A DNA stretch of 64,000 nucleotides from Opitutales bacterium (GCA_050331595.1 JBHJGQ010000004.1:140262-204261), one strand, 5' to 3'. Positions 8,981 through 22,406 are shown, numbered from the stretch's first letter. Program-made: numbers and translations. The notes: a model not told the origin generated them from the letters alone.

Positions 8981-8991
8981 TAGACGCTGCA

Positions 8992-9790: not shown

Positions 9791-11182
9791 ATGAGCCGTC
9801 CGAATATCCTCTTGGTCCTGTGCGACCAGCTGCAGGTCTTCATGTTGGGGTGCTACGGCAACGGGTTTGTGCGTACGCCCAACCTCGACCGCCTTGCGCA
9901 CAGCGGGGTGCGCTTCGAGACGTCAATGTGCGTCTTTCCGGTGTGCATGGCCTCGCGTTCTTCGCTGCTGGCGGGGCAGTTCAATCGCACCTGCACCGGG
10001 GGCATTGGCAACGTGGCTTATCCGAGCTTTCCGGGGAACTTCAACATGCCGGAGTACCCCTTTACCGACCGTCCGCACCTGCCCGACACGACGCTGCCAG
10101 AAAGCCTGCAGACAGCGGGTTATCACACCGCGGCCATTGGCAAGTGGCACATTCACAGCTGGCCGCACGACATCGGCTTTGACGAGTACGTCATCCCGCG
10201 CGTGCATCACTGCCACAGCGCCCAGCACTACTGTGAGAACGGAGGTCCGGAGTTCGTCCCGGAGGGCTGGAGCCTGGACTTTGAAGTGGAGCGGGCGGGG
10301 CGCTTTTTCCGCGAGCGCGAGGACTCGCAGAAGCCGTTCTTTCTGTATTTCAACATTTCGCCGCCGCACTGCCCCGTGGCCGACATACCGGAGTCGTTTC
10401 GCACGATGTACGAGCCGGCCGAAGTGCCCTTTCGGGCAAACGTCGACCCCGCAGTGATCGAGCGCGAGGACTGGCACTATCAGGCCAGCGTACTGCGCCA
10501 CGACTTTCGTTACTATGGACTTGGGCTGCCCTGCACGCAGACCTTGCCGGAGGGCTACGACCTGCGGGCGCTCACGGCCGAATACATGGGAGCGGTCAGC
10601 TGGGTGGACGATGCGGTGGGGCGCCTGCTTGATCACCTCGAGCACAGCGGCCTGGCCGAAAACACGCTCGTCGTCTTCAGCTCGGACCACGGGGAGTTCA
10701 TGGGCAGCCACGGGCGTTTTCAGAAAGGGGCACCGCACGATGAAAGCGCACGCGTGCCCTTGCTGATGCGCTGGCCGGGTCACTATCCGGCTGAAGCGGT
10801 GCGCACGCCCGTGGTCTCGCTGCTCGACCTTGCGCCGACGCTGTTGACGGCGGCGGGCGCGCCGGTTCCGGATTCGATGGTGGGCGAGAGTCTGGATGCC
10901 TTGGCCCGCAGCGACGGGCACAGGCTGCGGGATGACTTCCGGATCGTCGAGAGTTCAAGCGGTGCGGCCATCCGCACGCGGGAGCATCTCTATGCCGCTG
11001 AGTTTACGGAGGACCGAAGCGGGTTTAAGCCCGAGCCCTCCCTGTTTGTAAACAACCTCAAGGATCCGCTGCAGCAGCACAACCTGGCGGGCACGGGTGC
11101 CGAGGCCGAGGTGGCGGCCACCTTGCGTCAACGCCTTGAGATCTTTCACTCGCAAACACCCTGGATGGGCTCCTATAAATGA
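9791..11182 (+). CDS. Sulfatase family protein (sulfatase A), no signal peptide
   Basis: 'MSRPNILLVLCDQL' starts directly in the sulfatase fold. Active-site region 'FPVCMASRSSLLAGQ' has C-x-A-x-R instead of C-x-P-x-R. Also 'VVFSSDHGEFMGSHG'. The stop overlaps the next gene's ATG (ATGA, 11179-11182). Confidence 0.87.
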   Translation: MSRPNILLVLCDQLQVFMLGCYGNGFVRTPNLDRLAHSGVRFETSMCVFPVCMASRSSLLAGQFNRTCTGGIGNVAYPSFPGNFNMPEYPFTDRPHLPDTTLPESLQTAGYHTAAIGKWHIHSWPHDIGFDEYVIPRVHHCHSAQHYCENGGPEFVPEGWSLDFEVERAGRFFREREDSQKPFFLYFNISPPHCPVADIPESFRTMYEPAEVPFRANVDPAVIEREDWHYQASVLRHDFRYYGLGLPCTQTLPEGYDLRALTAEYMGAVSWVDDAVGRLLDHLEHSGLAENTLVVFSSDHGEFMGSHGRFQKGAPHDESARVPLLMRWPGHYPAEAVRTPVVSLLDLAPTLLTAAGAPVPDSMVGESLDALARSDGHRLRDDFRIVESSSGAAIRTREHLYAAEFTEDRSGFKPEPSLFVNNLKDPLQQHNLAGTGAEAEVAATLRQRLEIFHSQTPWMGSYK

Positions 11183-12168
11183 CCAAAACAATGACATCTC
11201 GTGAACGCGTAGCCGCAGTGCTACGCCGGGAAAAGCCCGACCGCACGCCACTGTACGGCTGGGTCAAGTTGAACCTGCGCGAGCCGATTGCGGCGGCCTA
11301 CGGGTCGGTGGAAGCCTTTGAAGATCATTTCGCTTTTGATCTGGAGCACCTCTTTCCGAACGGCCTGGCCCCCTATTGGGGTAATCGACTGGATGCGATG
11401 CGCGAGACGGTGGGCGAGAGTGATCTGACTCCGGAGCATCTGCTGGAGGTCGAGCTGTCCGATCCGAATCTGTCCGCGCCCTACGCCCGGCTGAAGGAGC
11501 AGATTGAAGCCTGTCACGGCAAAGAGCGCTTTGCCTACGTGCAGACACCCGGGATCTTCGAGTGCCTCAATCAGGCGTTTGGGATCGAGAATCACCTCTG
11601 TTACCTGCTCGAGTACGCCGATGAACTGCAGGAGGTCTATGCCCGGCAGGCAAAGTGGAATCAGACCGTGGCGAATAACCTCATCGATCTCGGCGCGGAT
11701 ATGATACACGTTTCCGATGACTGGGGGTCGCAGGACAGTTTATTGTTCAGCCCGGAGATATGGCATAGCCTGATAGCGCCCCATCACCGTTCCACGGCGG
11801 AGGCGGTGCGTTGTCGCGGCGCCTTTTTGAGTTTGCACAGCGACGGCTATATCTGGCCCGTTCTGGCCGAGACAGCGGCGATGGGTTATCAGTTGGTGCA
11901 TCCCTTTCAGGAGTCTGCCGGGATGGATTGGAGGGCCTACCGCCAGGACTTCGCGGACTCTTTCAGCATCATGGGCGGGATGTGTGTGCAGACAACGGTT
12001 GGCTTCGGCGATCTGGCAAAGGTTGAGGCCGAGTTGAAACGCGTTTTTGAGCTTATGGGAGCAACGCCCTGGATTTGCTGTACCTCACACTTCGTCCAGT
12101 CCCACTGCAGCATCGAGGAACTGACACGAACCTTCGAGATCGCGCGCGACCTGGCCAATGCGGGTTGA
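11179..12168 (+). CDS. URO-D/MtaA-type (uroporphyrinogen decarboxylase family) methyltransferase-like protein 1
   Basis: 'MTSRERVAAVLRREKPDRTPLYGWV' is the N-terminus typical of MtaA/CmuA-like URO-D family proteins. Also 'DLGADMIHVSDDWGSQ' and 'LSLHSDGYIW' (no HxC zinc motif). Confidence 0.78.
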   Translation: MTKTMTSRERVAAVLRREKPDRTPLYGWVKLNLREPIAAAYGSVEAFEDHFAFDLEHLFPNGLAPYWGNRLDAMRETVGESDLTPEHLLEVELSDPNLSAPYARLKEQIEACHGKERFAYVQTPGIFECLNQAFGIENHLCYLLEYADELQEVYARQAKWNQTVANNLIDLGADMIHVSDDWGSQDSLLFSPEIWHSLIAPHHRSTAEAVRCRGAFLSLHSDGYIWPVLAETAAMGYQLVHPFQESAGMDWRAYRQDFADSFSIMGGMCVQTTVGFGDLAKVEAELKRVFELMGATPWICCTSHFVQSHCSIEELTRTFEIARDLANAG

Positions 12169-12226
12169 TCTAAATGCAGGCGGCGTTGTGCCTTGGGGCG
12201 ATGGGCCAACCCTCGGCGACTGGACT

Positions 12227-13888
12227 TCAAGGCAGCGCCAGGTGCTCGAGGTAGGTGTCTTCGAAGTCCGGCAACTGGTTTAGCTCGAGCAGGGTGGTGT
12301 TGTGGCGAAAGCGCTCAAGTTCATCCACCAAGGCAACGTCGAGCAGACAAAGGTAGGTGCCCCCCAGCGATGTGTTGCCGACGACCTCGATCTGGCCTTC
12401 ACGGAAGCCTGGCAACAGCCCGCAGGCCAGCGCGCACGAGACGTTGAGGTTCCGTCCAAAGCCCCCGGCCAGGTAAAGCGTTTCGATGTCTTCTGGCTTG
12501 AGTGAAGCTGATTGCAAGAGCAGGTCGATACCGGCGGCAATGGCGGCCTTGGCCTGAAGCAGGCTGGCGATGTCGGCTTCGGAGATGTGAAGTGGCAGTG
12601 TGGCTTCCGGGTTAAGGCGAAGGGCTCGGCCCCATTGGGTCTGAGTCCGTTGGGCCGGCTGGAGGTGATCCCATGCATTCGGCTCGAAACGCCCGTACTG
12701 GTTCAACAATCGGCCCTGGCGAGCCACGGCCAGGAAATCCAAGTAGGCTGAACCACAGACACCCGCGGCCTGTTTGGCAGGCTTGGCCCCGATGGTCTTG
12801 AGCACGAACGCCCCGCCCTCCGGGGATGCGGCGATCTCGCTGATGGCTCCCTCGACGGCCCGGGTGCCACAGTCCAGTCCTGCGCCCTCGAAGGCCGGGC
12901 CCGCCGCCGTCGCGCAGGCCAGGCGTTCTTGCGGGGTCTGGAGCACGATTTCGCCATTGGTGCCGATGTCGACCAGGAGGCTGGGCCGTTGGCGGTAGGG
13001 CAAGCCAAGCGCAGCCAGTCCGGCGTTCAGATCCGCCCCGACGTAGGGGCCCAACCCCGGCAGCAGGTGTACGGGGAAAGGGTCGGCGCCGTCTTCGAGG
13101 ACCAGTCCAAGCGTATCGGAAAAATGGATACGATGCTCTAGGAAGACCGGCTGGAAAGGGGCGATTCCCAGCGGGGTCGGGTCGATGCCCGCGAGCAGAT
13201 GGAGCATGACCGTATTGGCCGCGACCGCCATGCCGGCCAGGGACCCGGCCGGCAGCGAGGCCCGGCGCATCAGTTGGCGCAGCAAAGGCACGAGGGTCTC
13301 CTCGCCCAGGCTGCGTTGCAACTGGCCAAGAGCAGCGGGGGACTTCCCAGCGTACTCGATGCGGGTGAGGACATTGTCGCCAAAGCGCACTTGTGCGTTC
13401 AACGCGCTGGCTCGGTCCACGATGCGTCCATCGCGCAAATCGACCAGCAGAACCGCCACGGTGGTGGTGCCCAGGTCGACGGCGAATGCATGCGTTTTCA
13501 CCTCGACCTGCTCAAAGAGTGGATTTTGCCCGGCGGAGACTTTCAGGACGAAGGCGTCTTCGATCCTGGGCGAATGCGCCAGCAGCGAACGCCTGGGCAC
13601 GTGCACGACGACTGCTTCGCCCGCGGTGGCGTGCAGCTGACATTCGCAGGCAGGCAGCGTTTGGGTCGCGTGCTGGAGGTTGCCCTTGTGCCGCAGGGTG
13701 CCGGCCCGCAGTTCGACGGCGCATCCCTGGCACAGCCCGCGTCCGGCGCAGCGGGTGTTCAGCGCATAACCGGCGCGGGCGAGAAGAGCATCCAGCCGGG
13801 TTTCGCAATCCTCGGGCGCGACCCGAAGCGTAGCCGGCGGGCGATCCGGCAGGTCCAGCGTGAGTCGAATGGAGGCAGGCTCGCTCAC
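12227..13888 (-). CDS. Reductive activator of corrinoid enzymes (RACE/RamA-RACo-like): N-terminal [2Fe-2S] ferredoxin + ASKHA ATPase (DUF4445)
   Basis: Ferredoxin cysteines 'RCAGRGLCQGCAV...LPACEC'. ASKHA phosphate motifs 'AVDLGTTTVAVLLVDL' and 'LLVDIGTNGEIVL'. GTG start overlapping the DUF1638 stop (GTGA). Confidence 0.85.
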   Translation of the reverse strand: MSEPASIRLTLDLPDRPPATLRVAPEDCETRLDALLARAGYALNTRCAGRGLCQGCAVELRAGTLRHKGNLQHATQTLPACECQLHATAGEAVVVHVPRRSLLAHSPRIEDAFVLKVSAGQNPLFEQVEVKTHAFAVDLGTTTVAVLLVDLRDGRIVDRASALNAQVRFGDNVLTRIEYAGKSPAALGQLQRSLGEETLVPLLRQLMRRASLPAGSLAGMAVAANTVMLHLLAGIDPTPLGIAPFQPVFLEHRIHFSDTLGLVLEDGADPFPVHLLPGLGPYVGADLNAGLAALGLPYRQRPSLLVDIGTNGEIVLQTPQERLACATAAGPAFEGAGLDCGTRAVEGAISEIAASPEGGAFVLKTIGAKPAKQAAGVCGSAYLDFLAVARQGRLLNQYGRFEPNAWDHLQPAQRTQTQWGRALRLNPEATLPLHISEADIASLLQAKAAIAAGIDLLLQSASLKPEDIETLYLAGGFGRNLNVSCALACGLLPGFREGQIEVVGNTSLGGTYLCLLDVALVDELERFRHNTTLLELNQLPDFEDTYLEHLALP

Positions 13889-14679
13889 GTCGATCGCTTG
13901 CCTGGGCGTGCCTCGACGATCTGTTCGTGAGCCACGGGAACAATCGACTGACCCGGCTCAACGATCAGAAACCGCTGGCGGTCCCAGCGTCCGGCCAGCA
14001 GATCCTGAAGCAGTTGGGGCTCGCCTTTGAGGTGCATGAAGTCCCAACCCATGCTGTCGGCACAGCGGCGAGTGTACCGCGGGCCCCACTGCGGGTCGCT
14101 GGCGTCGCCCAAATCGGGAAACTCCACATGGGCGGCTTTGCGCACGTGGGCAAGGGCGGCCCGTTCGGTTTCGATGAGAAACTCGATATCTTCGGTGTCG
14201 TCGAACTTTTCTGCGTACGCCTCGCGCAGCCGTTCAAACTTTTCGTGGCAAGGGACCCGTCCGCCTCGGTTCCACCCCGGCGAATACCAGTACAAATCGG
14301 GGTGTGCCTGGCGCAACGTCTCGTAGCGTTCACGGCTGCCGAGCAAGAGCGTGATGCAGTCGTGCGCGCGCGGCAGAACCAGACGGCAGCGATGTGCGGA
14401 CAGCCCGCTCAGCCCATTGCCGCAAAGCCCGTAAGCCAGGACGATGGCCTGGGCGCTGGTCTGCGCCTCGATCACATCGATGGTTGCCTGCAGCCTGGCG
14501 CGCAGCTGCTCGGGTCGATCATGCAGGCCCATTTCCAGCAGGCAGAGCTCGACCACCGCCGGGATGGTCTGGCCTTGCAGAAAGTAGCGGACCTCTGCCT
14601 CGAAGACATCGCACGCCACCACGGCCAGAGGCGCGTCGGTGCCGTCTTCGCGGATTGGCGGGTGAGTGGTCTCAGCCAT
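13885..14679 (-). CDS. DUF1638 domain protein (corrinoid-system associated, function unknown)
   Basis: Internal ATG at 14679 gives 'MAETTHPP...LAVVACDVFEAEVRYF...LAYGLCGNGLSGL...LPRAHDCITLLLGS'. The first 144 codons of the track ORF overlap the upstream gene and were discarded. The start overlaps the upstream stop by 8 nt (ATGGCTGA). Confidence 0.72.
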   Translation of the reverse strand: MAETTHPPIREDGTDAPLAVVACDVFEAEVRYFLQGQTIPAVVELCLLEMGLHDRPEQLRARLQATIDVIEAQTSAQAIVLAYGLCGNGLSGLSAHRCRLVLPRAHDCITLLLGSRERYETLRQAHPDLYWYSPGWNRGGRVPCHEKFERLREAYAEKFDDTEDIEFLIETERAALAHVRKAAHVEFPDLGDASDPQWGPRYTRRCADSMGWDFMHLKGEPQLLQDLLAGRWDRQRFLIVEPGQSIVPVAHEQIVEARPGKRST

Positions 14680-15700
14680 CGAGGGCAGCGTTGAGCATGG
14701 CGCGGTAGTTTTCAATCGGCACGTAATCCGGGACGGAATTTCCGGTGCCCACGGCGTAGCCGCCCCGCTGTGCCGAACGCTCGACCATGCTCCGGGCGCG
14801 GCGGTAAACCTCCTCAGGCCGGCTGCGGCAGACGTAATCCATGTCGAGGCCGCCCAGGACTGCCAGGCGCGGGTGCAGGCGTTCGTAGGCGTCTTCCACG
14901 GGGCAAATGGCATCTTCGTAAGAGTGTTTGCCGTCCGCCTGGATGTCGTCGACCACGTCGTCCCAGACTTCATCAAGGTTTCCGCACGAGTGCAGGATAA
15001 CCGGTCGCCCGCACTGGTGGGCCATGCTCGCCATTCGCTTGTGCCAGGGAAAGATGTACCGGCGCAGGTCGGCGGGCGAGAGCATGGTCTGTGTCCTGTA
15101 GCCCCAATCATCGTTTTGAATGATTGCCCCTACGCTCTCGCAGGCGAGGGCCAGCTCGTAGTGGCGGACGAGCCGCCGGCCCACTTCGTCGGTGACCGCC
15201 TGAACCAGCTCGGGGTCCTCCAGGGTCAACAGGCACAGGTCCTCGAAGCCCACGACCTTGATCAGGTTTTCGAGCACGCCGCAGTTGGCCGGGACGACAA
15301 ACTTCATGCCATCGGGCAGTTCGCTGGCCAGCTCATCGATGATTTCAAAGGCCTGCTCGTTGACCTCGGGCCAGGTCAACTGATCCAGGTCGTCCCAGTC
15401 TTTGACCACGCCACCTTCATTGGCCGAGTACGATTCCATCTCGGCCTGATCGCCCAGGCTGAAGTGGATGAAGGGCGGCCACGCCGGGTGCACGACGGCG
15501 AAGTCATAGCCGGCCGCGGCAAAGAGCTCGATCCAGGCCTGCAGCTGAGCTTTGGGGTCATCGGGCGGTGGTGGCGCGATGTCGTAGTGCGGAAAAAGCG
15601 CTTCGCAGAGAATGAACTCAAAGAGGGTGGGACGGCTGGGCGCCTTGCGCTGCAGGACGGCCAGCAGATTGGCAAAGTCAGGTTCTCGAGGGGCCCTCAT
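14672..15700 (-). CDS. URO-D/MtaA-type methyltransferase-like protein 2 (HxC zinc motif present)
   Basis: ATG 15700 gives 'MRAPREPDFANLLAVLQRKAPSRPTLFEFIL'. 'GRPVILHSCGNLDEV' matches the H-x-C zinc-ligand motif of MtaA/MtbA-type enzymes. ATGA overlap with the upstream GTPase gene. Confidence 0.78.
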   Translation of the reverse strand: MRAPREPDFANLLAVLQRKAPSRPTLFEFILCEALFPHYDIAPPPPDDPKAQLQAWIELFAAAGYDFAVVHPAWPPFIHFSLGDQAEMESYSANEGGVVKDWDDLDQLTWPEVNEQAFEIIDELASELPDGMKFVVPANCGVLENLIKVVGFEDLCLLTLEDPELVQAVTDEVGRRLVRHYELALACESVGAIIQNDDWGYRTQTMLSPADLRRYIFPWHKRMASMAHQCGRPVILHSCGNLDEVWDDVVDDIQADGKHSYEDAICPVEDAYERLHPRLAVLGGLDMDYVCRSRPEEVYRRARSMVERSAQRGGYAVGTGNSVPDYVPIENYRAMLNAALDG

Positions 15701-16842
15701 GGTTGAGACAGATCGGCGGATTGCGCCCTTTCCCGGGAAGCAAAGCGGTGTGTGGGTTGAGGGGCCGCCGGCCGAAAGGCTGCCATCGCCTTCAGCTCGA
15801 AACGCACGCCTGCTCCGGCTTGCGACGACTGGAGCTGTGCCTGCAGGTGAGTGCGCAAAACCTGTGGCGAGGTGAGGGCGCGCACGTTGATTTCGAGCAG
15901 GGCTTCGCCCGGGGACATCCGGGCCCGTCCATGGTCGCGCTGTTGGGTGAAGTCGGCCCGACGGTCGATCCGGTTCAGACGAAGGCATTGGGCACGTGTG
16001 GCCAGATAGGCCTTGGCGTGGGCAATCTCGGCACCTTCGGCGAGCAGGCAGGCTATCAGCCGGGCAAAGAAGGCGCGTCCGTGGGCCAGGCCGTCGCTGT
16101 CACTTTTGGCTTTCAGGCCGACGGTGGCGTTGAGCCAGCCCAGCATCCCCTCGCCTTCGGCGTAGACTTCGTAGTCGACCTCGGGCATTCGCAGGCCAGG
16201 CGTAGCTGCGGGATCCGTCACCTGATTGAGCCATCGGTCGATGCCTTCGCCAGTCACCGTGGAGATCGTTTGCACGTGTCGGTCGGGAAACTCAGCGCGG
16301 AGCTTGTGGGTGAGGTTGCGCAGGAGGACGGGGTCGTGACGGTCGGCCTGGCTGAGCAACAGACAGTCGGCCTCCTCCAGTTGCTTGCGAAAGATGTAGA
16401 AGACCGATTCGGGAAAGGGTCGCTCTCCCAGCGGGCCGGTGAGCCGGGCCAGACGGGCCGGGTCGACCAACGCAGTGGCCGGCGCCACGGCGTAGCGGTC
16501 GGCAAAGTAGGTGCGCAAAGGTGCCGCAACCGTGGCGACCAAATCGGTACAACTGCCCACCGGCTCACACAAAAAGTAGTCCGGCGCCACCGCCTCGCCC
16601 AGCTGCTGCAGGGCTTGCAAAAGCGTATCGAACTTGCAGCAGAAGCATCCGCCACTGACTTCGCCTACCCGAAACCCGGCGGCTTCGAGCGTGGCGGTGT
16701 CGACCAGGTTCATCGCCTGGTCGTTGGTGATCAGGCCCACGCGCTGACCCCGCGCCGCCAGGCGCGTGGCGGCCGAGGCGAGCAAACTGGTTTTGCCCGC
16801 GCCAAGAAAGCCGCCAACGAGAATGAAGCGGGGCAGAGCCAC
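15697..16842 (-). CDS. COG0523/CobW-like G3E P-loop GTPase (putative metallochaperone)
   Basis: 'FILVGGFLGAGKTSLL' (Walker A) and 'VSGGCFCCKF' (the GCxCC motif of COG0523). The best start is GTG 16842, 6 nt after the upstream stop. The Arg/Pro-rich N-terminal 150 aa of the track ORF was rejected. Confidence 0.72.
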   Translation of the reverse strand: MALPRFILVGGFLGAGKTSLLASAATRLAARGQRVGLITNDQAMNLVDTATLEAAGFRVGEVSGGCFCCKFDTLLQALQQLGEAVAPDYFLCEPVGSCTDLVATVAAPLRTYFADRYAVAPATALVDPARLARLTGPLGERPFPESVFYIFRKQLEEADCLLLSQADRHDPVLLRNLTHKLRAEFPDRHVQTISTVTGEGIDRWLNQVTDPAATPGLRMPEVDYEVYAEGEGMLGWLNATVGLKAKSDSDGLAHGRAFFARLIACLLAEGAEIAHAKAYLATRAQCLRLNRIDRRADFTQQRDHGRARMSPGEALLEINVRALTSPQVLRTHLQAQLQSSQAGAGVRFELKAMAAFRPAAPQPTHRFASRERAQSADLSQP

Positions 16843-16847
16843 GGCGG

Positions 16848-18227
16848 TCAGCGCTCCCAGGCGTGCGTTGGATCGCCCACTGAACGGATCGCGGCCACCA
16901 GGCGGGGGCGATCTGGAATAATGGAGGCGAACTGTTCCCTGCCTTGAATGCAAATGCTGGGAATGGCCGTGACGTTGAGCTTCTTCATGTAGCCCAGGCC
17001 GGCGCGTTCCTTGATCTTGTGTTCGCGCACCTGCACGTGGTCGCCCGCTTCGCTCGCGGCTTGCTGAGCAGCCTGGAGCATGTACTGGCACGGTGCGCAG
17101 GAACCCGAATCCAGCGTAACCACGTCGACAATCACGCGGCCGCTGCGGTCGTAATCGGGCAAATCGATGTCCTCGAAGGGATCCTCGGGGGCTGCCTCGG
17201 CGGCGGTGCGGGCCACGTCGCGCTGGTAGGGATTGTGCACGAGTGCGGCCACCGCGCGCAGGTTGGCCTCGGGTGTGGCGTAGGGCAGGTCGCAACCGGG
17301 CGCGAGGATGAAGCCTGTGGCCCCACCTTCGTCGTAGCAGCGAAGGGCATCTCTCTGCGACTCGAGTTCGTTGCCCAGAAGCAGCGCGGTGGTCAGGCGC
17401 AGGTTGCCGCCAAAGGATTTTCCGGCTTTGGTGGCAATCGCCCGCAGGGCCGCCAGGCTGACGTTCTCGTCGACACTGAGGTTGTCACAGCGTGTCTGGC
17501 ACATGGCGGGAAGATTGCGGGTGGCGTCGCCGCAGACGAAGAGTGAAGCCAGCCCACCGCCCGCGTGAACGGCGTCGAAGACGTCGTTGAGGGGACTGCT
17601 GACGAAGCGCTCGAAGTGCTCGGGCGAGATCTGGCTGACCATCGGATCGACCACTGCCACAACGTCGGCGCCCGCCTCCAGGTAGGCTTGCGCGGTGACC
17701 TGGCCAACTTGAGCGCAGTGACGCAGCAGCACGTCGACGTCGTCTTCGGCGTCGTACATATCCAGGAAGATGTCGTCTCCGCGCAGGTGAAGGCCCAAGG
17801 TGAAGGGACCGGTGATGAGGCCGTAGAGAGCGACCGTCTCGCCGATCTCGGCCTTGAGTTGGCGCAGCGCTTCCAGGACGACCGGCAGGCGGCCTCCGTT
17901 TGGGTCGAACCCGGGCAGTACCGAGAGGTCCATCGAATCGAGCAAGGGATGGCTGCAGACCGCTGGTGGCGAGTCGTCGCTCCAGCGCAGCTTGCAGCCA
18001 AGAATCTCGGCCTCGATCTGAAGGTCGAAGGCCACGGGCAGGGCGTCGGGCTGGTAGGCCTCGTGGGCGTGCTTGAGGCCCGCGTACAGTTTTTGCGAGT
18101 CGCGCAGGTAATCGGAGGCGGTGGCACCGATCAGGCTGCCGCCATGGACGCCCACAAAGGGCAGCCACGGCACTCGCGGTACAGCCTGGCCGCGCAGGGC
18201 CGAAAGGAGGATTTCTTTGCCATTCAT
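16848..18227 (-). CDS. URO-D/MtaA-type methyltransferase-like protein 3 fused to a C-terminal thioredoxin-fold CxxC domain
   Basis: ATG 18227 gives 'MNGKEILLSALRGQAVPRVPWLPFVGVHGG', then 'GFILAPGCDLPYATP' (URO-D family C-terminus). About 95 extra residues follow: 'VIVDVVTLDSGSCAPCQYML...VTAIPSICIQGREQFASIIP', which resembles small redox-active disulfide proteins. ATGA overlap with the corrinoid protein gene. Confidence 0.75.
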   Translation of the reverse strand: MNGKEILLSALRGQAVPRVPWLPFVGVHGGSLIGATASDYLRDSQKLYAGLKHAHEAYQPDALPVAFDLQIEAEILGCKLRWSDDSPPAVCSHPLLDSMDLSVLPGFDPNGGRLPVVLEALRQLKAEIGETVALYGLITGPFTLGLHLRGDDIFLDMYDAEDDVDVLLRHCAQVGQVTAQAYLEAGADVVAVVDPMVSQISPEHFERFVSSPLNDVFDAVHAGGGLASLFVCGDATRNLPAMCQTRCDNLSVDENVSLAALRAIATKAGKSFGGNLRLTTALLLGNELESQRDALRCYDEGGATGFILAPGCDLPYATPEANLRAVAALVHNPYQRDVARTAAEAAPEDPFEDIDLPDYDRSGRVIVDVVTLDSGSCAPCQYMLQAAQQAASEAGDHVQVREHKIKERAGLGYMKKLNVTAIPSICIQGREQFASIIPDRPRLVAAIRSVGDPTHAWER

Positions 18228-18904
18228 ACGATTGTGTAGCCTTGCGAAAGGTCGCGGTTGCTTCGTTGCGCCGTTGAGGCCTCGCCCATGAGTTCGCGTA
18301 CGAGGTCCACCGCGCTGGCGGCATCGGTGGAAAACCCGTCGGCCTGAATCTCGTCGGCAAACTCCTGGGTTACGGGTGCGCCTCCCACAACGATACGGAT
18401 TTGCGGCAGATTTGCCTCCCGGATGCGCGCAACTGTCTCCTTCATCTTCGGCATCGTGGTCGTCAGCAGGGAGGAAAGGCCGATGATGTGGGCGTCGTTT
18501 GCCCTGGCGGCCTCGACAAACTGATCGGCGGTGACGTTGGTGCCCAGGTCGATGACCCGAAAGTTTGCACCCTTCCACATCATCGCCACGAGGTTCTTGC
18601 CGATGTCGTGCAGGTCGCCTTCGACGGTGCCAATAACCGCTGTGTACTTGGGGGCGAGGCCGGCGCCCGCCAGAGCGGGCTCGAGCAGCTGCATCGCCTG
18701 CTTCATCGCGCGGGCAGCCACCAGCACCTCAGGGATATAGATTTCGTTGGCCTTGAAGCGTCGGCCCACGTCATCCATCCCGCGCACCATTGCGGCGAGA
18801 ATGTCGCCCGGGTTGGCCTGTGCCTCCAGGGCCTGGCTGGTTTGGGCGACGGCGTCCTTGCGCTTGCCGGCTTTGATGGCTTCCTCGAGAGCATCCAAAT
18901 TCAT
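18224..18904 (-). CDS. Corrinoid (cobalamin)-binding protein, MtaC/MtbC-like
   Basis: Helical cap 'ILAAMVRGMDDVGRRFKANEIYIPEVLVAARAM'. B12-binding motif 'GTVEGDLHDIGKNLV' (DxHxxG), plus 'GLSSLLTTTM' and 'VVGGAPVT'. Confidence 0.88.
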   Translation of the reverse strand: MNLDALEEAIKAGKRKDAVAQTSQALEAQANPGDILAAMVRGMDDVGRRFKANEIYIPEVLVAARAMKQAMQLLEPALAGAGLAPKYTAVIGTVEGDLHDIGKNLVAMMWKGANFRVIDLGTNVTADQFVEAARANDAHIIGLSSLLTTTMPKMKETVARIREANLPQIRIVVGGAPVTQEFADEIQADGFSTDAASAVDLVRELMGEASTAQRSNRDLSQGYTIV

Positions 18905-18949
18905 GACGATAAGTATTTGCTAGTTATTGACCTGTTATTTGAAAGAAGG

Positions 18950-20065
18950 CTACTGGTCATTGCACCAGACTTCGCGGGACTTGGCGATGTAGAACCGGTA
19001 GTTTTGCAGGCTCACGTCCGGAGGGACGCGGTGGTCACAATGGGCCACAAAGCCACCTTCGCTGACCAGCGGGGCCAAGCGGTGTATCTCGGCCTCGATG
19101 GCCGTCGGCCCCTGCGCGAGGATACGCTTGTCGAACCCGCCACGCAGGAGCAACCCCTTGCCGAAGTGCTTGCGCAGGGTGACAGGATCGGCCTTCCAGG
19201 TGCCCACTTCAATGGGGAACATGCAGTTGACACCGGCTTCCAGCCAAAGCGGCAGCAGGGCATCGATGCAACCGTCGCAGTCGACCCAAATCACGTCGAT
19301 GCCGTGGCGCCGGGCCAGCTCGGTGATGCGCCGGTAGCGTGGCACCAGATACTTTTGGAAATGCTCGGGTGAGAGCAGGGGGCCGGCGTTGAAGCACATA
19401 TCCTCCCACATGGCCAGAGCATCGAACTGTCCGCCCCGGGCAAAGGCCCGCTCGAGCGTGCCTTCGATGCACTCGCAGAGCGTCTCGACCATCTCCTCAA
19501 AAAGCGCGGGGTCGTCGTAGACCAGGTAGGCAATCGCTTCCAGGCCCATCCAGTCGCGCAGCCAGCCAAAGAGGCTGCCCCCGTGGACTTCGACAATGGC
19601 ATTGCGGTTGGGGTCGCGCCAGAGCGCACACCGCTCCGAATCGGGGGCCGGCAGGCGGTCGGGGTGGTCGGGATTGAGTCTGGGCTTGTAGTGAGTTTCC
19701 CAGGACTCGCGGTCAACCAGCAGGTGCCCCAGGTGATGGGGGATGGAGCCCATGAACTTGCCGCGGCGGACCAGGACGCCATCGTGTTGGCGCACGACCT
19801 CGTTCTCGCCCTCGTCTCGAATCAATTCGGGCTCAAAGCCCGGGCACAGTCCGACGTGCACGCCGGCATCGCGCAGATCGTCCATGCCGAAATAACGCGC
19901 GCCCGCGCCGTGCGAATTGACTTCAGCGGGCAGGCCATCTCGCTGCCACAGGACCAGCGTCTCGTCCCAGAAGCCGAAGTCCAGCAACGTGGGTCGGTCA
20001 CGTGCCTCGAAACGCATCGTGGCCAGAAACCGCGCGCGGTCGGTCATGGGGTTGGAGTCGGTCAT
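18950..20065 (-). CDS. URO-D/MtaA-type methyltransferase-like protein 4
   Basis: 'MTDRARFLATMRFEARDRPTLLDFGFW' (family-typical N-terminus), 'GIDVIWVDCDGCIDALLP' and 'GGFVAHCDHRVPPDVS'. The start is ambiguous (ATG at 20047, 20065 or 20089) because an 18-bp duplication repeats the start codon. Confidence 0.76.
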   Translation of the reverse strand: MTDSNPMTDRARFLATMRFEARDRPTLLDFGFWDETLVLWQRDGLPAEVNSHGAGARYFGMDDLRDAGVHVGLCPGFEPELIRDEGENEVVRQHDGVLVRRGKFMGSIPHHLGHLLVDRESWETHYKPRLNPDHPDRLPAPDSERCALWRDPNRNAIVEVHGGSLFGWLRDWMGLEAIAYLVYDDPALFEEMVETLCECIEGTLERAFARGGQFDALAMWEDMCFNAGPLLSPEHFQKYLVPRYRRITELARRHGIDVIWVDCDGCIDALLPLWLEAGVNCMFPIEVGTWKADPVTLRKHFGKGLLLRGGFDKRILAQGPTAIEAEIHRLAPLVSEGGFVAHCDHRVPPDVSLQNYRFYIAKSREVWCNDQ

Positions 20066-20078
20066 GGGGTTGGAGTCA
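20043..20078 (-). repeat. 18-bp direct tandem duplication spanning the start region of URO-D-like gene 4
   Basis: gtcatggggttggagtcg / gtcatggggttggagtca, 17 of 18 identical. It encodes MTDSNP-MTDSNP-MTD on the minus strand. Confidence 0.85.
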
Positions 20079-20354
20079 CCGCTGATCATGAATGAAAGCT
20101 TACCATAAAGACTCCTTATCGTGGAATCGCTTTTCGCGCTGAAAACTTGTACTATTCTGCTGCCGCGCAGCCACGTGAGCAAGGTGCCGCTCAGTGGCTT
20201 TTGCGGGCGTTGTGCCGGGAGCTTGTCCAAGGGAAGCGCGCCGCAGAGGCCCGCGTAGCTTCATGTTTGCTGCGGATTACCCGGGCCTCCCGATCCGGCT
20301 GCCGGGCCGCTCGAATGTCCAGGGCAGGCCTTCGGCGGAGTGCTGGCAAACCGC

Positions 20355-21968
20355 CTAGGCGTCCGGGTAGTAGTCCGCGCGCAGCGCCCAGTTGCAGTCG
20401 ACGCCGTGGAAGTTCAGTCCGGGCAACCAGGCCTGGTGGGTCGCCGGCGTGCCGTTTTGGAAGTTGCCGTCGCACTCGGCCAGAAGCGTCGTGCTGAGCC
20501 GGCCGACAATCTCGCGCTCGTCGGCGGCACGGTCTTTGGTTTCGGCGTAGTCGTCGGGCAGGTGATAGAGCTGGTAGCGATTGCCGCCGGGCAGGGCGAG
20601 AAAGCGCAGCTTCCAGCCCTCGCGGGTGGTCAAGGCGGGTCCGGGTCCGGAGGCATAAACGACGTGGTCGTGTTCGGTCTGGGCGTCGGAGCGCCCGAGC
20701 AACTCGGGCAGGAAGCTGATGCCGTCGGCGGTGCCGCAGGGGACGTGGAGCAGGTCGGCCACCGTCGCCAGGAAGTCGTAGTTGGCCATGAGCAGGTTGG
20801 ACTGCCGCCCTGCGCTGATCGACTCGGGCCAACGCACCAGAAAGGGTAAACGCACCCCGCCTTCCCAGCTGTCGCGCTTGCGTCCGGCCATGCCGTCATT
20901 GCCGTTGAAGACGTCGCCGCTGGTCTCGGAGGTGAAGCGCGTGACCACATTGTCGTAGCGCTCGCCGGTTTGGACATTGCAGGCCGGGTGGGTCCGCCCT
21001 TCCTGATGGTAGTAGACCTCGTGACCGTTGTCGGCGCAGAAGATGACCATCGTGTTGTCGGCGATGCCGAGGCGTTCGAGCTCGTCGAGCACGAGGCCCA
21101 CGGTGTGGTCGAGCCGCAGCACCATCGAGGCGTATTCCTTCTCGTAATCAGTCAGGCCATCCACGTCGCGAACGGCCGGATCGATCTCGGGAATACGGAT
21201 CGGCCCGTGGGGCAACTGGCTGGGGTGAAAGAGGAAGAAGGGCCGGTTTTGGTGCAGGCGCAGGAACTCCAGCAGCTTGGCGTCGAAAAGGTCCTGGGAG
21301 TACGTGGCACAACCCGAAAAATCCCAGCGCTTTTCGGCGTTTTCCGGGGTGTCGCCATCGGGAACGACGCCGAAGTTCCAGCGGGTGTTGCCGTGAATGT
21401 CGAGACGCTGGCCGTTTTCAAAGAGGTAGGGCGGGTAAAAGCCGTGGCACTGCTCGTGGTCGTAGTAGCCGTAGTGGTAGTCCCAGCCGTGGCTGCGAAT
21501 GTCGGCGTCGGAGGTGGCAAAGCCCCATTCGAGTTTGCCGATTTGGCCGGTCACGTAACCGGCGGCACGCGCCACGTCGGCCAGGAAGACGGTGCCGGGT
21601 CCGGGCTGAAGGCTGACGGTGAAGAGGCGCTCTTCCAACGCGCGCTGGCTGACTTTGCCGCTGGTGTAGGCGTGGTAACTGCCGCCCGGCGTGAAGCTCC
21701 AGCCGCCGCGATGGCAATCGTGCGCGCCGGTCAGCAGGCTCGCTCGCGAGGGCGCGCAAAAGGCGCATCCGTAGGCACGTTCAAAGCGCAGGCCTTCACC
21801 GGCCAGGCGGTCGATGTTGGGCGTACGAAACCACTTTTGCCCGTAACAGCTGAGCATGCCGCGCCCCAGATCATCGGCGTAGATGTAAACGATGTTGGGG
21901 GGCTTTCCATCGAAGACAGGGGCAGCGCACATGGACCCGAGGTAGTGTTGTGAGGGTGGGGTCGGCAA
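20355..21968 (-). CDS. Sulfatase family protein (sulfatase B), no signal peptide
   Basis: 'PPNIVYIYADDLGRGMLSCYG' and 'GCAFCAPSRASLLTG' (C-x-P-x-R), plus 'VIFCADNGHE'. The N-terminus 'MPTPPSQHYLGSMCAAPVFDG' has no hydrophobic signal. Confidence 0.87.
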   Translation of the reverse strand: MPTPPSQHYLGSMCAAPVFDGKPPNIVYIYADDLGRGMLSCYGQKWFRTPNIDRLAGEGLRFERAYGCAFCAPSRASLLTGAHDCHRGGWSFTPGGSYHAYTSGKVSQRALEERLFTVSLQPGPGTVFLADVARAAGYVTGQIGKLEWGFATSDADIRSHGWDYHYGYYDHEQCHGFYPPYLFENGQRLDIHGNTRWNFGVVPDGDTPENAEKRWDFSGCATYSQDLFDAKLLEFLRLHQNRPFFLFHPSQLPHGPIRIPEIDPAVRDVDGLTDYEKEYASMVLRLDHTVGLVLDELERLGIADNTMVIFCADNGHEVYYHQEGRTHPACNVQTGERYDNVVTRFTSETSGDVFNGNDGMAGRKRDSWEGGVRLPFLVRWPESISAGRQSNLLMANYDFLATVADLLHVPCGTADGISFLPELLGRSDAQTEHDHVVYASGPGPALTTREGWKLRFLALPGGNRYQLYHLPDDYAETKDRAADEREIVGRLSTTLLAECDGNFQNGTPATHQAWLPGLNFHGVDCNWALRADYYPDA

Positions 21969-22055: not shown

Positions 22056-22406
22056 ATGGACATCCAAACAGCTATCGAAGACCTCAATGCCCTCGTGCTT
22101 TCTGGCAAAGCGCTCGAGGCGTTCGAGAAGTACTATGACGAGTCGATCGTCATGGTGGAGAAAAACGACGTACTGGCCGAAGGCAAAGACGCCAACCGTA
22201 AGCGCGAAGAGGAATTCTTCGCAAACATCACCGAGTTTCGCGGCGCTGAAGTGAAGGCCGTCGCGGTGGGTGAGAACGTGAGCATGGTCGAGTGGCACTT
22301 CGATTACGTGCACAAGGAATGGGGTCACATGAAGTACGACCAGGTGGCCGTGGCCAAGTGGAAGGACGGCAAGATCGTCCACGAGCGCTTTTACGCGCTT
22401 TACTAG
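22056..22406 (+). CDS. SnoaL-like / NTF2-fold small protein
   Basis: 117 aa from ATG 22056. 'YYDESIVMVEKNDVLAEGKDANRKREEEFF...VSMVEWHFDY...KWKDGKIVHERFY' fits a cone-shaped alpha+beta NTF2-like pattern. The call rests on fold only. Confidence 0.55.
   Translation: MDIQTAIEDLNALVLSGKALEAFEKYYDESIVMVEKNDVLAEGKDANRKREEEFFANITEFRGAEVKAVAVGENVSMVEWHFDYVHKEWGHMKYDQVAVAKWKDGKIVHERFYALY

Follow-up and report, generated by a model that had tools for sequence, protein, structure and literature searches.

A 64,000-nucleotide stretch of DNA from an Opitutales MAG (Verrucomicrobia), hereafter the window, carries a corrinoid-dependent methyl-transfer gene set lying between sulfatase genes. This raises the question of which compounds supply the methyl groups, and whether the sulfatases belong to the same pathway. 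Domains were called using Pfam and NCBIfam profile searches, with our own start assignments for the minus-strand genes; the longest-ORF starts in an earlier note on this DNA were over-extended. The gene content listed there held up, with the claimed domains present in 10 of 10 genes.

Gene content and transcription units

On the plus strand, sulfatase A (SulfA, 9791..11182; Pfam Sulfatase 164 bits, plus SGSH_C), an S1 formylglycine sulfatase with a CMASR motif, is followed by URO-D1 (11179..12168; Pfam URO-D 48 bits), a divergent member of the MtaA superfamily with LHSDG and CCTSH..HC motifs and a candidate substrate:corrinoid methyltransferase (MT1). The minus-strand unit opens with sulfatase B (SulfB, 20355..21932; Sulfatase 154 bits; S1, CAPSR), followed by URO-D4 (18950..20065; URO-D 44 bits; WVDCDG, FPxE, and DH motifs), a distinct superfamily member and likewise a candidate MT1. 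Next are a corrinoid protein (CoP, 18224..18904; B12-binding 98 bits and B12-binding_2 62 bits) that combines a cap with a Rossmann domain and has the DxHxxG motif as DLHDIG, and URO-D3-Trx (16848..18227; URO-D 194 bits plus Thioredoxin_3 with a CAPC motif), a fusion of an MtaA/CmuA-like methyltransferase with a thioredoxin domain and our proposed MT2. The unit continues with a COG0523 (CobW-type) GTPase metallochaperone (15697..16842; cobW 76 bits; GAGKTS and GCFCC motifs), URO-D2 (14672..15700; URO-D 76 bits; HxC motif in LHSCGN), a DUF1638 protein (13885..14679; PF07796 113 bits), an accessory factor of B12 reactivation, and a RACo/RamA-type ATP-dependent reductive activase (12227..13888; RACo_C_ter 215 bits, Raco_middle 135 bits). 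On the far side of SulfB, a plus-strand SnoaL-like gene (22056..22406; SnoaL_5 48 bits) precedes minus-strand sulfatase C (SulfC, 22448..23917; Sulfatase 134 bits; S1_7-like, CMPSR), so SulfC and the MFS and GH43 genes belong to a different transcription unit.

Most junctions within the minus-strand unit are tight, with 4-nt overlaps at CoP/URO-D3, CobW/URO-D2, and DUF1638/RACo, an 8-nt overlap at URO-D2/DUF1638, and gaps of 5 nt at URO-D3/CobW and 45 nt at URO-D4/CoP. An 18-bp tandem duplication makes the start of URO-D4 ambiguous (20089, 20065, or 20047). SulfB lies about 290 nt from URO-D4, a distance that shrinks to about 125 nt with the TTG at 20230 as start codon, and hence is not translationally coupled to it. 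Translational coupling of the module to sulfatases, as proposed earlier, applies to SulfA and URO-D1, whose stop and start codons share an ATGA overlap, and not to SulfB and URO-D4.

The DxHxxG corrinoid protein, RACo-type activase, and MtaA-superfamily methyltransferases support the reading of the locus as a corrinoid-dependent methyl-transfer operon. In the N-terminal [2Fe-2S] ferredoxin domain of the activase the Cx5Cx2C...CxC motif is visible and the Fer2 match is weak. An AcsV-type model matched the activase at 306 bits (below the 800-bit cutoff), and MtgC/MtbC-like models matched CoP at 156-179 bits, also below their cutoffs. DUF1638 is genetically linked to a RamA-like protein and a split MetH in B12 reactivation (PMC5764234), and is co-induced with MtgC (PMC12478193). 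It is outdated to place such systems only in methanogens, acetogens, and organohalide respirers: RamA- and DUF1638-dependent CoP systems also function in marine, aerobic Roseobacters (PMC5764234, PMC12478193). The completeness claimed earlier is likewise not supported: no pterin-binding or homocysteine-binding acceptor methyltransferase was found within the window, including none for folate, and relatives carry such genes.

Relationships of the four URO-D-like proteins

By NCBIfam, BLASTP, and structure comparison, the four proteins are all distinct from HemE, as the earlier note had anticipated, and alignment with MtaA revealed the full HxC...C zinc motif in none of them. URO-D3 is far more like MtaA than HemE, both in sequence and in its predicted structure. 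It scored 157 bits against TIGR01463 (cutoff 235) vs. 68 bits against hemE (cutoff 303) in NCBIfam, matched the MtaA structure 4ay7 with E=1e-27, and gave BLASTP scores of 105 bits to MtaA vs. 20 bits to HemE. The AF2 model of URO-D3-Trx (pLDDT 92) aligned in Foldseek to MtaA with a TM of 0.88 (rmsd 2.5 Å), and to HemE with a TM of ~0.8. Residues Cys232, Asp253/Glu254, and Cys312, the counterparts of MtaA zinc ligands Cys242, Glu263, and Cys319, are invariant in 20 homologs, and CAPC in the Trx domain is a canonical CxxC that aligns with WCGPC.

URO-D1, URO-D2, and URO-D4 scored far below every curated methyltransferase cutoff in NCBIfam, which leaves their methyltransferase activity putative. 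URO-D1 had weak MtaA matches and no hemE match, and URO-D2 matched PRK06252 (48 bits), retaining the HxC and Glu ligand in the MtaA alignment with the distal Cys missing. URO-D4 had no NCBIfam match, and its AF2 model (pLDDT 86) is equidistant from MtaA and HemE.

URO-D1 and URO-D4 are conserved families (51-57% and 57-62% identity across phyla, respectively), whose members either adjoin the core or stand by themselves in clusters for the catabolism of sugars, uronates, and pectin. Most URO-D1 orthologs stand alone, a corrinoid protein being nearby in one of 53 metagenome loci, and neighbors of URO-D1 orthologs include GFO_IDH_MocA, GH5, GH2, and sugar-isomerase-like TIM barrels; in strain DG1235 (L008) the ortholog lies immediately upstream of the corrinoid protein. 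Orthologs of URO-D4 (~60% identity) adjoin the corrinoid core in the window and in L042, L055, L060, and L172, so that together with L008 five loci in other phyla combine the core with a member of one of the two families. Other URO-D4 orthologs occur in a pectin/hexuronate locus with four URO-D paralogs (L173), next to genes for acid-sugar kinases (L005, L174), and in the vicinity of GH51/GH43/GH127 genes (L006), which lends independent support to the earlier suggestion of O-methyl-sugar donors. URO-D2 orthologs are rarely close to the core.

Conservation of the core and of the sulfatase linkage

A tblastn search of GTDB data (one genome per species) found relatives at 578 or more sites. Neighbors of URO-D3-Trx in 83 loci were the COG0523 GTPase (69), a corrinoid protein (31), an AraC regulator (22), RACo (17), DUF1638 (13), homocysteine methyltransferase (9), and sulfatase (4, within 10 kb). 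URO-D3-Trx and the GTPase are thus a conserved pair, in a methyl-transfer gene set of a widespread, uncharacterised bacterial type. In L050 the order is AraC, then CoP, a genuine MtaB (543 bits), CobW, RACo, HcyMT, and URO-D3-Trx; this pairing puts URO-D3-Trx in the slot of MtaA (MT2). In L008 it occurs alongside a CmuA-like fusion and a pterin-binding methyltransferase.

L001, a relative with 84% amino-acid identity, is syntenic, and so is Pelagicoccus mobilis (L010) apart from its lack of sulfatases; the arrangement is therefore not due to chance. Accessory methyltransferases are swapped even between close relatives: the URO-D4 ortholog of L001 is an 84-aa deletion remnant, replaced by a paralog of 28% identity.

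The catalytic domains of SulfA, SulfB, and SulfC begin 4-12 residues after the start codon, and no hydrophobic stretch was found in the in-frame sequence upstream (≤37 codons); the three therefore lack signal peptides, as claimed earlier, and are predicted to be cytoplasmic. By their nearest solved structures they are carbohydrate-type sulfatases: GlcNAc-6-sulfatase 5g2v for SulfA (E=3.5e-44), 7ana and 7an1 for SulfB, and 6hhm (E=1e-62) and iduronate-2-sulfatase for SulfC. The GH43, GH51-like, and GH140-like (apiosidase) enzymes reported earlier are present, whereas the supposed GPH-type importer is an 888-aa transporter that matches MFS_1 and not the GPH family.

In both Opitutales genomes (the window and L001) the module is bracketed by SulfA and SulfB, SulfB being the first gene of the operon in each, while the wider context differs. 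The sulfatase linkage was not conserved outside this immediate lineage, an outcome that the earlier note had named as refuting its reading. Besides the four of 83 core loci, a sulfatase adjoined URO-D1 orthologs in three of 53 metagenome loci (≥5 kb each), counts that do not exceed what sulfatase-rich PVC genomes would give anyway, and no glycan-gene enrichment was found in a random sample of 123 proteins neighboring the core. Sulfatase coupling is thus conserved only in one close relative, and the module is not sulfatase-specific, which is the new point here. The earlier interpretation stands as to the corrinoid methyl-transfer operon and its non-HemE proteins, but not as to sulfatase linkage, completeness, or restricted taxa.

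Proposed function and alternative readings

We give about even chances to the reading that this operon combines a widespread core with interchangeable substrate modules, the donors most likely being O-methylated sugars or sugar acids; plausibly, it serves O-methyl sugars as a modular corrinoid hub whose substrate-specific methyltransferases can be exchanged. The core comprises CoP, URO-D3-Trx, the COG0523 GTPase, the RACo-type activase, and DUF1638. The assignment of MT1 and MT2, of methyl donor and acceptor, and of the direction in which the methyl moves is inferred, as follows. RACo, aided by DUF1638, would use ATP and its own [2Fe-2S] cluster to reduce inactive Co(II)-CoP to Co(I). A divergent URO-D-like enzyme (URO-D1, URO-D4, perhaps URO-D2), each with a different version of the metal site of MtaA, would act as MT1, its Lewis-acid metal activating a methyl ether so that the methyl passes to Co(I). 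URO-D3-Trx as MT2 would then discharge methyl-Co(III)-CoP to an acceptor that is probably a thiol, or discharge could fall to pterin- or homocysteine-binding methyltransferases encoded elsewhere. The GTPase would load the metal sites. Because the module lies between cytoplasmic carbohydrate-type sulfatases, the likeliest donors are sugars or sugar acids that carry O-methyl groups and derive from glycan fragments after import and desulfation, and the gene set may be a means of oxygen-independent sugar demethylation. Co(I) attack on an alkyl methyl ether is chemically harder than on the aryl ethers of known O-demethylases. As the earlier note had supposed, a literature search found no published description of a corrinoid route for methyl-sugar demethylation, nor of this gene set.

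It is conceivable, though we think it rather unlikely, that the module and the sulfatases are unrelated neighbors in a sulfatase-rich genome, with the methyl groups drawn from small molecules other than glycans, for instance methanol, methylated thiols or amines, methyl halides, or methoxylated aromatics. The scarcity of nearby sulfatases fits this, as do the syntenic modules of Pelagicoccus mobilis and DG1235, which are under an AraC regulator and lack a sulfatase, the coupling of the core to a methanol-using MtaB and to a CmuA-like fusion, the spacing after SulfB, and the opposite-strand gene that sets SulfC apart. Even the SulfA/URO-D1 overlap is missing in L001, where a 47-nt gap takes its place. 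Against it are that overlap in the window, the flanking of the module by SulfA and SulfB in two genomes of otherwise different context, a Pirellulaceae locus (L034) where a sulfatase overlaps the COG0523 stop codon by 4 nt, and the recurrence of URO-D4 and URO-D1 orthologs in sugar-catabolic clusters. A mainly anabolic module, supplying methyl groups by way of cobalamin to homocysteine (methionine synthesis) or folate with the URO-D-like proteins as donor-side or acceptor-side parts, seems improbable. The four paralogous methyltransferases, with the accessory ones exchanged, fit substrate diversification better than housekeeping, the window lacks a homocysteine- or pterin-binding gene, and the core-adjacent regulators are of AraC type. 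AraC-type regulators are typical of catabolic operons. Still, homocysteine S-methyltransferase (PF02574, 244 bits) occurs in L172 as well as in the nine core loci, MTHFR or pterin-binding genes occur in at least five, and URO-D4 orthologs adjoin Pterin_bind and MTHFR genes in L006 and L007; such neighbors fit methionine/C1 metabolism as well as catabolism. The module would then resemble the Roseobacter split MetH with RamA and DUF1638: DUF1638 and RamA-like mutants of Phaeobacter are methionine auxotrophs (PMC5764234), and in Ruegeria one CoP is common to methionine synthesis and betaine demethylation (PMC12478193).

Two further readings weigh less against the proposed O-methyl-sugar hub. URO-D3-Trx and the GTPase could act on metals or metalloids, for example by methylating or demethylating arsenic, mercury, or selenium species, with the thioredoxin CxxC and the GCxCC GTPase handling a soft metal. 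In L037, L041, L045, and L050 the pair faces convergent genes of two kinds, HgcA-like ones (NVWCAAGK motif, CdhD domain) and ACR3 arsenite carriers, and in NCBIfam both the Trx domain and the GTPase come closest to selenoprotein families (listed in PMC13188914), the CobW-related selenoprotein model matching the GTPase at 58 bits, below its cutoff. However, this pattern occurs in just four of the 83 loci, three or more of which belong to related Verrucomicrobiota, the HgcA-like and ACR3 genes are on the opposite strand and do not occur in the window, and COG0523 could equally well be a zinc chaperone for the methyltransferases; we consider this reading very unlikely. That the URO-D-like genes encode HemE-type decarboxylases is effectively refuted. 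It would account for hemC and cobA-hemD 1-3 kb upstream, likewise in L001, and for HemE being the sole sequence-level PDB match of URO-D4 (E=4e-4; 31.6 bits to E. coli HemE in BLASTP). But no protein reached the hemE model, identity to E. coli HemE is at most 22%, the N-terminal RQAGRY substrate motif is missing, the genes share an operon with CoP, RACo, and DUF1638, and trpF separates the tetrapyrrole genes from the locus.

Gene content and operon structure

All genes that the earlier note had listed for the window (G+C content 62%) were recovered by ORF listing, inspection of start codons, and Pfam and NCBIfam scans. On the plus strand, sulfatase A (SulfA, 9791-11182) ends in a TGA that overlaps the ATG of the first uroporphyrinogen decarboxylase (URO-D)-like gene, URO-D1 (11179-12168), as ATGA. 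Converging on this pair from the minus strand are, in order of transcription, sulfatase B (SulfB, 21932-20355), URO-D4 (20065-18950), a corrinoid protein (CoP, 18904-18224), URO-D3 fused to a thioredoxin domain (URO-D3-Trx, 18227-16848), a COG0523/CobW-type GTPase with a GCFCC motif (16842-15697), URO-D2 with an LHSCGN motif (15700-14672), DUF1638 (14679-13885), and the [2Fe-2S] reductive activase RACo (13888-12227). From CoP to RACo, adjacent genes overlap by 4 to 8 nt or are separated by 5 nt, a spacing from which this stretch can certainly be predicted to form one operon.

The flanking genes are less tightly joined to the module than had been proposed. SulfB, thought to be translationally coupled to URO-D4, is separated from it by a gap of about 290 nt. 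The third sulfatase (SulfC), the transporter, and the GH43 gene had been counted as context of the module; a plus-strand SnoaL-like gene (22056-22406) intervenes between SulfC and SulfB, so that SulfC, an 888-aa transporter, GH43, and a G8/beta-helix protein constitute a separate unit. That transporter matches MFS_1 instead of the GPH type named previously. The wider window also encodes a GH51-like enzyme, a GH140-like apiosidase, a CBM6/35 protein, two LacI regulators, and an SSF transporter.

CoP matches B12-binding_2 (62 bits) and B12-binding (98 bits) and contains DLHDIG (DxHxxG), SSLL, and VGG motifs; against the pyl_corrinoid model TIGR02370 it scores 167 bits, under the cutoff of 215. 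RACo matches RACo_C_ter (215 bits), Raco_middle (135 bits), and, weakly, Fer2, and has the Cys motif as well as the phosphate motifs DLGTTT and DIGTNG. A corrinoid protein with B12 cap and Rossmann domain and an ATP-dependent reductive activase, both features of three-component methyltransferase systems, are therefore present. None of the window ORFs scanned encodes a Pterin_bind or S-methyl_trans protein. Across the whole window, Rfam gave no cobalamin riboswitch, its sole match being a tRNA (4823-4896), and a scan of the window for sigma-70 promoters and terminators was uninformative, since counts equaled those in shuffled sequence.

Several other features of the window were recorded. The 5′ end of URO-D4 (20039-20077, minus strand) contains a perfect 18-bp tandem duplication of 2.2 copies, which repeats the peptide DSNPMT and yields three in-frame ATGs (20089, 20065, and 20047), so that the true start is ambiguous; AAGGAG and a 6-codon mini-ORF lie directly upstream of this start region. 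Genes for hemC, a cobA-hemD fusion, and trpF (6533-9639) directly precede SulfA, in the same order as in L001, the relative at 84% amino-acid identity; that tetrapyrrole genes adjoin a B12-dependent operon may be coincidence. The MFS transporter (24616-27282) has a C-terminal portion of about 490 aa with no assigned domain, and two minus-strand ORFs (23936-24619, 227 aa; 29081-30373, 430 aa) have coding-like GC3 and no Pfam or NCBIfam match. The gene for the G8/beta-helix protein (30436-34008, 1190 aa), oriented divergently to a LacI regulator gene (34136-35245), heads the unit of SulfC, GH43, and the transporter; its product combines G8, CEMIP-type beta-helix, PKD, and Golvesin_C domains and may be a secreted glycan-cleaving enzyme of undescribed type.

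Identity and metal sites of the URO-D-like proteins

The URO-D-like proteins were placed by profile scores and pairwise comparisons against references. None is HemE: the hemE model TIGR01464 was matched by URO-D3 only, at 68 bits versus a cutoff of 303, and BLASTP against E. coli HemE gave at most 32 bits and 22% identity, with the N-terminal RQAGRY motif absent from the alignment.

URO-D3 is clearly MtaA-like (E = 1e-27 versus Methanosarcina mazei MtaA). Its score of 157 bits against the MtaA/CmuA model TIGR01463 does not reach the curated cutoff of 235.4, which places it as a relative of the MtaA/CmuA family outside the curated family itself. The AF2 model (pLDDT 92, pTM 0.90) has the MtaA-type TIM-barrel fold and superposes on MtaA (4ay7) with a TM of 0.88 and an rmsd of 2.5 Å (E = 9e-22), compared to about 0.8 for HemE structures. 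We take the MtaA zinc site to be His240, Cys242, Glu263, and Cys319 (4ay7 numbering, mapped through the URO-D3/MtaA alignment). Cys232, Asp253/Glu254, and Cys312 of URO-D3 align with the Cys242, Glu263, and Cys319 ligands, and an invariant Phe stands in for the His ligand, so the site reads Phe-x-Cys ... Asp-Glu ... Cys. Across 20 homologs from several phyla these residues do not vary, nor do Cys377, Cys380, His403, and Cys426 of the C-terminal domain, which has a canonical thioredoxin fold with CAPC aligned to WCGPC and the cis-Pro in place.

By alignment, the full MtaA zinc site (His-x-Cys ... Glu ... Cys) is absent from all four proteins. URO-D2 has His-x-Cys ... Glu-Asp and no distal Cys; URO-D1 has His-x-Asp ... 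Cys-Thr-Ser-His, and URO-D4 has Asp-x-Asp ... Glu ... Asp-His. Against TIGR01463 (cutoff 235.4), URO-D2 scores 39 bits, URO-D1 scores 32 bits, and URO-D4 gives no match. For URO-D1 and URO-D4 there is no sequence-detectable solved relative except a marginal HemE match. The URO-D4 model (pLDDT 86) is as distant from MtaA as from HemE (TM about 0.6-0.65), its match to 4ay8 (TM 0.65, E = 9e-12) being no better than that to HemE. URO-D1 and URO-D4 are separate families of the superfamily, and all three proteins are putative methyltransferases.

Conservation and genomic context

The 455-aa URO-D3-Trx fusion belongs to a tight family, with the best 120 homologs at least 57% identical. A scan of one genome per GTDB species confirmed relatives at a minimum of 578 sites, the best 80 of which are full-length orthologs. 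These 80 come from Phycisphaerae, Planctomycetales, Verrucomicrobiota, Victivallales, and Kiritimatiellales, from Prolixibacteraceae (Mariniphaga, Sunxiuqinia, Saccharicrinis, and Draconibacterium), and from Fimbriimonadales, Acidobacteriota, Hydrogenedentota, KSB1, and Calditrichia. ORFs were called at 83 URO-D3-Trx loci and searched with the seed proteins. COG0523 was found in 69 of the 83 loci, CoP (usually immediately upstream of URO-D3-Trx) in at least 31, RACo in at least 17, and DUF1638 in at least 13; the last three frequencies are lower bounds because the counts come from simple ORF calling and phmmer seeds on contigs that are often short. The same 83 loci include an AraC-type regulator (22), other URO-D paralogs (17), a homocysteine S-methyltransferase (HcyMT; confirmed, 244 bits; 9), MTHFR (5), an HgcA-like protein (4), ACR3 (4), and a sulfatase (4). 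No Pfam family dominated a random sample of 123 other neighbors of the core, by which we mean CoP, URO-D3-Trx, COG0523, RACo, and DUF1638.

Individual loci show what travels with this core. Pelagicoccus mobilis has a syntenic module (AraC, then CoP, URO-D, URO-D3-Trx, COG0523, URO-D, DUF1638, and RACo), and strain DG1235 (L008) additionally encodes a CmuA-like fusion, a pterin-binding methyltransferase, and an SSF transporter. In L031 (Opitutales) the order is MTHFR, Pterin_bind, CoP, URO-D3-Trx, COG0523, DUF1638, RACo, and URO-D. The most telling locus is L050 (Verrucomicrobiota), where AraC is followed by CoP, a genuine MtaB (PF12176, 543 bits), COG0523, RACo, HcyMT, URO-D3-Trx, and a further COG0523; here URO-D3-Trx occupies the place of MtaA, the methyl-corrinoid:acceptor methyltransferase (MT2) of methanol systems. 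This context, together with its similarity to MtaA, makes URO-D3-Trx a candidate MT2. The window has CoP, RACo, and DUF1638 and is without homocysteine- and pterin-binding modules, which occur in the related loci L031, L050, L082, L086, L090, and L172. In DG1235, DUF1638 is followed by a 224-aa protein with no Pfam match (L008:13084-13758). At four loci from Verrucomicrobiota and Kiritimatiellales (L050:4071-15638, L037, L041, and L045), genes for an HgcA-like protein (NVWCAAGK cap-helix motif, CdhD domain) and for an ACR3 arsenite carrier run convergently toward the URO-D3-Trx/COG0523 pair.

URO-D1 orthologs (51-57% identity across Latescibacterota, Armatimonadota, and Lentisphaerae) are mostly solitary genes. 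At 53 metagenome loci of at least 5 kb, CoP was nearby in one and a sulfatase in three. The commonest neighbors, at three to five loci each, are sugar-related (among them GFO/IDH/MocA oxidoreductases, GH5, GH2, and sugar-isomerase-like TIM barrels), and clustering the neighbors of 80 metagenome loci revealed no conserved partner, with no family in more than five. In DG1235 the ortholog (50% identity, LHSDG motif) immediately precedes CoP and URO-D3-Trx.

Ten contexts of URO-D4 orthologs (57-62% identity; Chloroflexota, Verrucomicrobiota, and others) were viewed, five of which (the window, L042, L055, L060, and L172) place the gene next to the corrinoid core. L172 is arranged as URO-D4, CoP, an unannotated protein, RACo, HcyMT, DUF1638, and URO-D, with URO-D3-Trx, COG0523, and URO-D divergent; the unannotated protein (L172:9794-10873, 359 aa) carries a YHMDG motif and is recorded without a Pfam entry. 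In L006 and L007 the orthologs are beside pterin-binding and MTHFR genes. Four contexts are carbohydrate or acid-sugar clusters: L173, L005, L174, and L006. L173:1-17122 is a pectin/hexuronate utilization locus (GH88, GH28, KduI, KduD-like, UxuA-like, PL22, aldo-keto reductases, and UxaC) with four interleaved URO-D-like paralogs, one of them a 61%-identical URO-D4 ortholog, and no corrinoid protein within 8 kb. L005 and L174 contain DUF1537-type acid-sugar kinases, SIS, RraA, and PTE, and L006 has GH51, GH43, and GH127 nearby. In L001 (17705-19167) the URO-D4 ortholog is reduced to an 84-aa internal-deletion remnant in which residues 7-62 are joined to 348-369, and another URO-D paralog (366 aa, 28% identity, YHTDG and YHSDH motifs) sits between this remnant and SulfB. 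Given such differing accessory sets in two close Opitutales genomes, the accessory methyltransferases behave as exchangeable cassettes around a constant core.

Of the sulfatases, all three have the C-x-(P/A)-x-R formylglycine motif and, as the earlier note had it, leave no space for a signal peptide. Among solved structures they are closest to carbohydrate sulfatases (GlcNAc-6-sulfatase, 7ana/7an1, 6hhm, and iduronate-2-sulfatase). Choline-O-sulfate is not supported as a substrate, given these structural relatives and scores of 80-155 bits versus a choline sulfatase cutoff of 433. L001 keeps the link to the module, with SulfA and URO-D1 on one side and SulfB on the other, in different surroundings and with a 47-nt gap in place of the SulfA/URO-D1 overlap; a PhyH-family gene precedes SulfA there. 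Elsewhere the cases are sporadic. A sulfatase directly follows URO-D1 in L101 and L169, and on one Lentisphaerae contig a URO-D gene and a sulfatase gene overlap. In a Pirellulaceae MAG (L034:10726-14054) URO-D3-Trx is followed by a COG0523 gene whose stop a sulfatase gene overlaps by 4 nt, an independent but isolated instance of coupling to the core. Sulfatases make up a few percent of genes in these phyla, and against that background the frequencies at core loci (4/83) and URO-D1 loci (3/53) are no higher than chance would give; neither Pelagicoccus nor DG1235 has a sulfatase in its syntenic module. The linkage proposed earlier is therefore not conserved beyond the genus level. The sulfatase coupling is the weakest part of the original claim; the interesting part is the module itself, which recurs in association with sugar-acid and pectin loci.

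Proposed mechanism and relation to known systems

In the mechanism we propose, RACo together with DUF1638 would reactivate Co(II)-CoP. A genetic link connects DUF1638 with a RamA-like activase in Phaeobacter (PMC5764234), and in Ruegeria it is co-induced with MtgC (PMC12478193). URO-D1, URO-D4, and possibly URO-D2 would act as substrate-specific substrate:corrinoid methyltransferases (MT1), their harder Asp/Glu/His metal sites polarizing the methyl ether, and URO-D3-Trx would act as MT2, its Cys-rich, MtaA-type site being suited to a thiol acceptor. COG0523 would metallate the URO-D metal sites, and in some genomes pterin- or homocysteine-binding modules would move the methyl group into folate or methionine. 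Plausible donors are O-methyl sugars or uronates derived from glycan fragments that would be imported and desulfated by the flanking cytoplasmic sulfatases. We consider this the most likely account of the locus, with confidence and doubt about evenly balanced.

The main competitor is that the sulfatases are juxtaposed by chance and the methyl donor is not a glycan. Sulfatase frequencies at chance level speak for it, and the retained link in L001 and the acid-sugar contexts of URO-D4 orthologs speak for a glycan donor; we hold it to be unlikely, albeit a serious contender. A mainly anabolic role in methionine or C1 metabolism is improbable: HcyMT, MTHFR, and pterin-binding genes recur in related loci, and the window itself has no homocysteine- or pterin-binding module. 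The HgcA-like and ACR3 neighbors suggest metal(loid) chemistry, a very improbable alternative confined in its evidence to four of the 83 loci, and a tetrapyrrole role has a negligible chance given the HemE comparisons. Extending the proposed mechanism beyond this locus, we would only tentatively suggest a widespread, undescribed, O2-independent pathway in which URO-D-fold enzymes demethylate plant and algal O-methyl sugars or uronates onto a shared CoP, and an MtaA-like-Trx MT2 with its own COG0523 passes the methyl group to a bacterial thiol, methionine, or folate.

By analogy, the overall logic is already known from MtaABC, the O-demethylases, and the RamA/DUF1638-served corrinoid protein systems of Roseobacters. 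MtaABC of Methanosarcina (MtaA, 4ay7) likewise combines an MT1, a CoP, and a URO-D-fold MT2 with ATP-dependent reductive reactivation. Of the proteins here, URO-D3 is the closest to MtaA, with three of four zinc-site residues kept, and in L050 a genuine MtaB stands beside the same core. In contrast to MtaA, URO-D3 has the invariant Phe for His, a CxxC thioredoxin domain added at the C terminus, and a COG0523 GTPase of its own; the window has three divergent URO-D-like paralogs instead of MtaB, and its activase is of the bacterial [2Fe-2S] RACo type, accompanied by DUF1638. Coenzyme M synthesis is not known from bacteria of these phyla, so a different acceptor must be used.

Another comparison is with the aryl O-demethylases, namely those found in acetogens and Desulfitobacterium (MtvABC/Odm), made up of MT I, CoP, a pterin-binding MT II, and an activating enzyme, and MtoABCD of Methermicoccus; their MT I is in the same superfamily as MtaA, CmuA, and MtvB (PMC8630106). 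Shared features are several substrate-specific MT I paralogs per genome, a RACo-type activase with an N-terminal 2Fe-2S cluster, and methyl ethers as (here proposed) donors. However, the window has no pterin-binding MT II (L008 and L031 do), the module is carried by glycan degraders (PVC, Bacteroidota, and similar) rather than acetogens, and the ethers proposed as donors are alkyl (sugar) instead of aryl; none of the O-demethylase systems described includes a Trx-fused MtaA-like protein, COG0523, or DUF1638. The split methionine synthase and MtgBC betaine demethylase of Roseobacters, which use a RamA-like protein and DUF1638 (PMC5764234; PMC12478193), share the reactivation set of CoP, RamA/RACo-like activase, and DUF1638, operate in non-methanogenic, oxygen-tolerant bacteria, and resemble related loci here in having homocysteine- and pterin-binding modules. 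Their donor enzymes, however, are MttB-superfamily members or MetH domains, where the candidates proposed here are URO-D-like; those systems have neither a Trx-fused MtaA-like protein nor a COG0523 partner, and the window has no MetH modules. For the chloromethane dehalogenase/methyltransferase CmuAB of Methylobacterium, the likeness lies in the sub-cutoff match of URO-D3 to the shared MtaA/CmuA model (157 versus 235 bits) and in DG1235, where a CmuA-like URO-D and B12 fusion and a pterin-binding protein adjoin the core; the window has no fused corrinoid domain or CmuB-type partner.

The only characterized route for sugar demethylation is, as the earlier note said, a P450 enzyme, the 6-O-methyl-D-galactose demethylase of marine Bacteroidetes, which is oxidative, needs O2, and releases formaldehyde (PMC6292453). 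It shares the proposed physiological role and is unrelated in fold, cofactor, and mechanism; transfer in the system proposed here would be nucleophilic and O2-independent and would conserve the methyl group. A literature search found no corrinoid route for sugar demethylation, sulfatase-linked or otherwise, as the note had also supposed, and no description of a Trx-fused MtaA-like enzyme with a COG0523 partner or of the URO-D1 and URO-D4 families. Papers on Ace Lake MAGs and Pontiella agarivorans contained nothing relevant to such a system, and those on "HUIPC" and "CobW-related selenoprotein" merely list these families.

Sugar methyl ethers, such as 6-O-methyl-galactose in porphyran and agar, 4-O-methyl-glucuronate in xylans, and 2-O-methyl-fucose and 2-O-methyl-xylose in rhamnogalacturonan II, block glycoside hydrolases and downstream sugar catabolism. 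Much glycan turnover takes place in anoxic sediments, guts, and digesters, where the phyla carrying the module are prominent. If URO-D-like families do demethylate sugars through a corrinoid, as in the wider pathway suggested above, the system would be an anaerobic counterpart of the P450 route, filling a gap in anaerobic glycan degradation and tying glycan turnover to vitamin B12 demand and C1/methionine metabolism. It would also give a function to thousands of genes annotated as "uroporphyrinogen decarboxylase family protein" and explain why glycan degraders among PVC, Bacteroidota, Chloroflexota, and Armatimonadota have so many of them. The URO-D3-Trx/COG0523 pair is a well-defined unknown by itself, with relatives at 578 or more sites; cultured carriers such as Pelagicoccus mobilis, Verrucomicrobiae bacterium DG1235, Mariniphaga sediminis, Sunxiuqinia rutila, and Saccharicrinis sp. 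are available for genetics.
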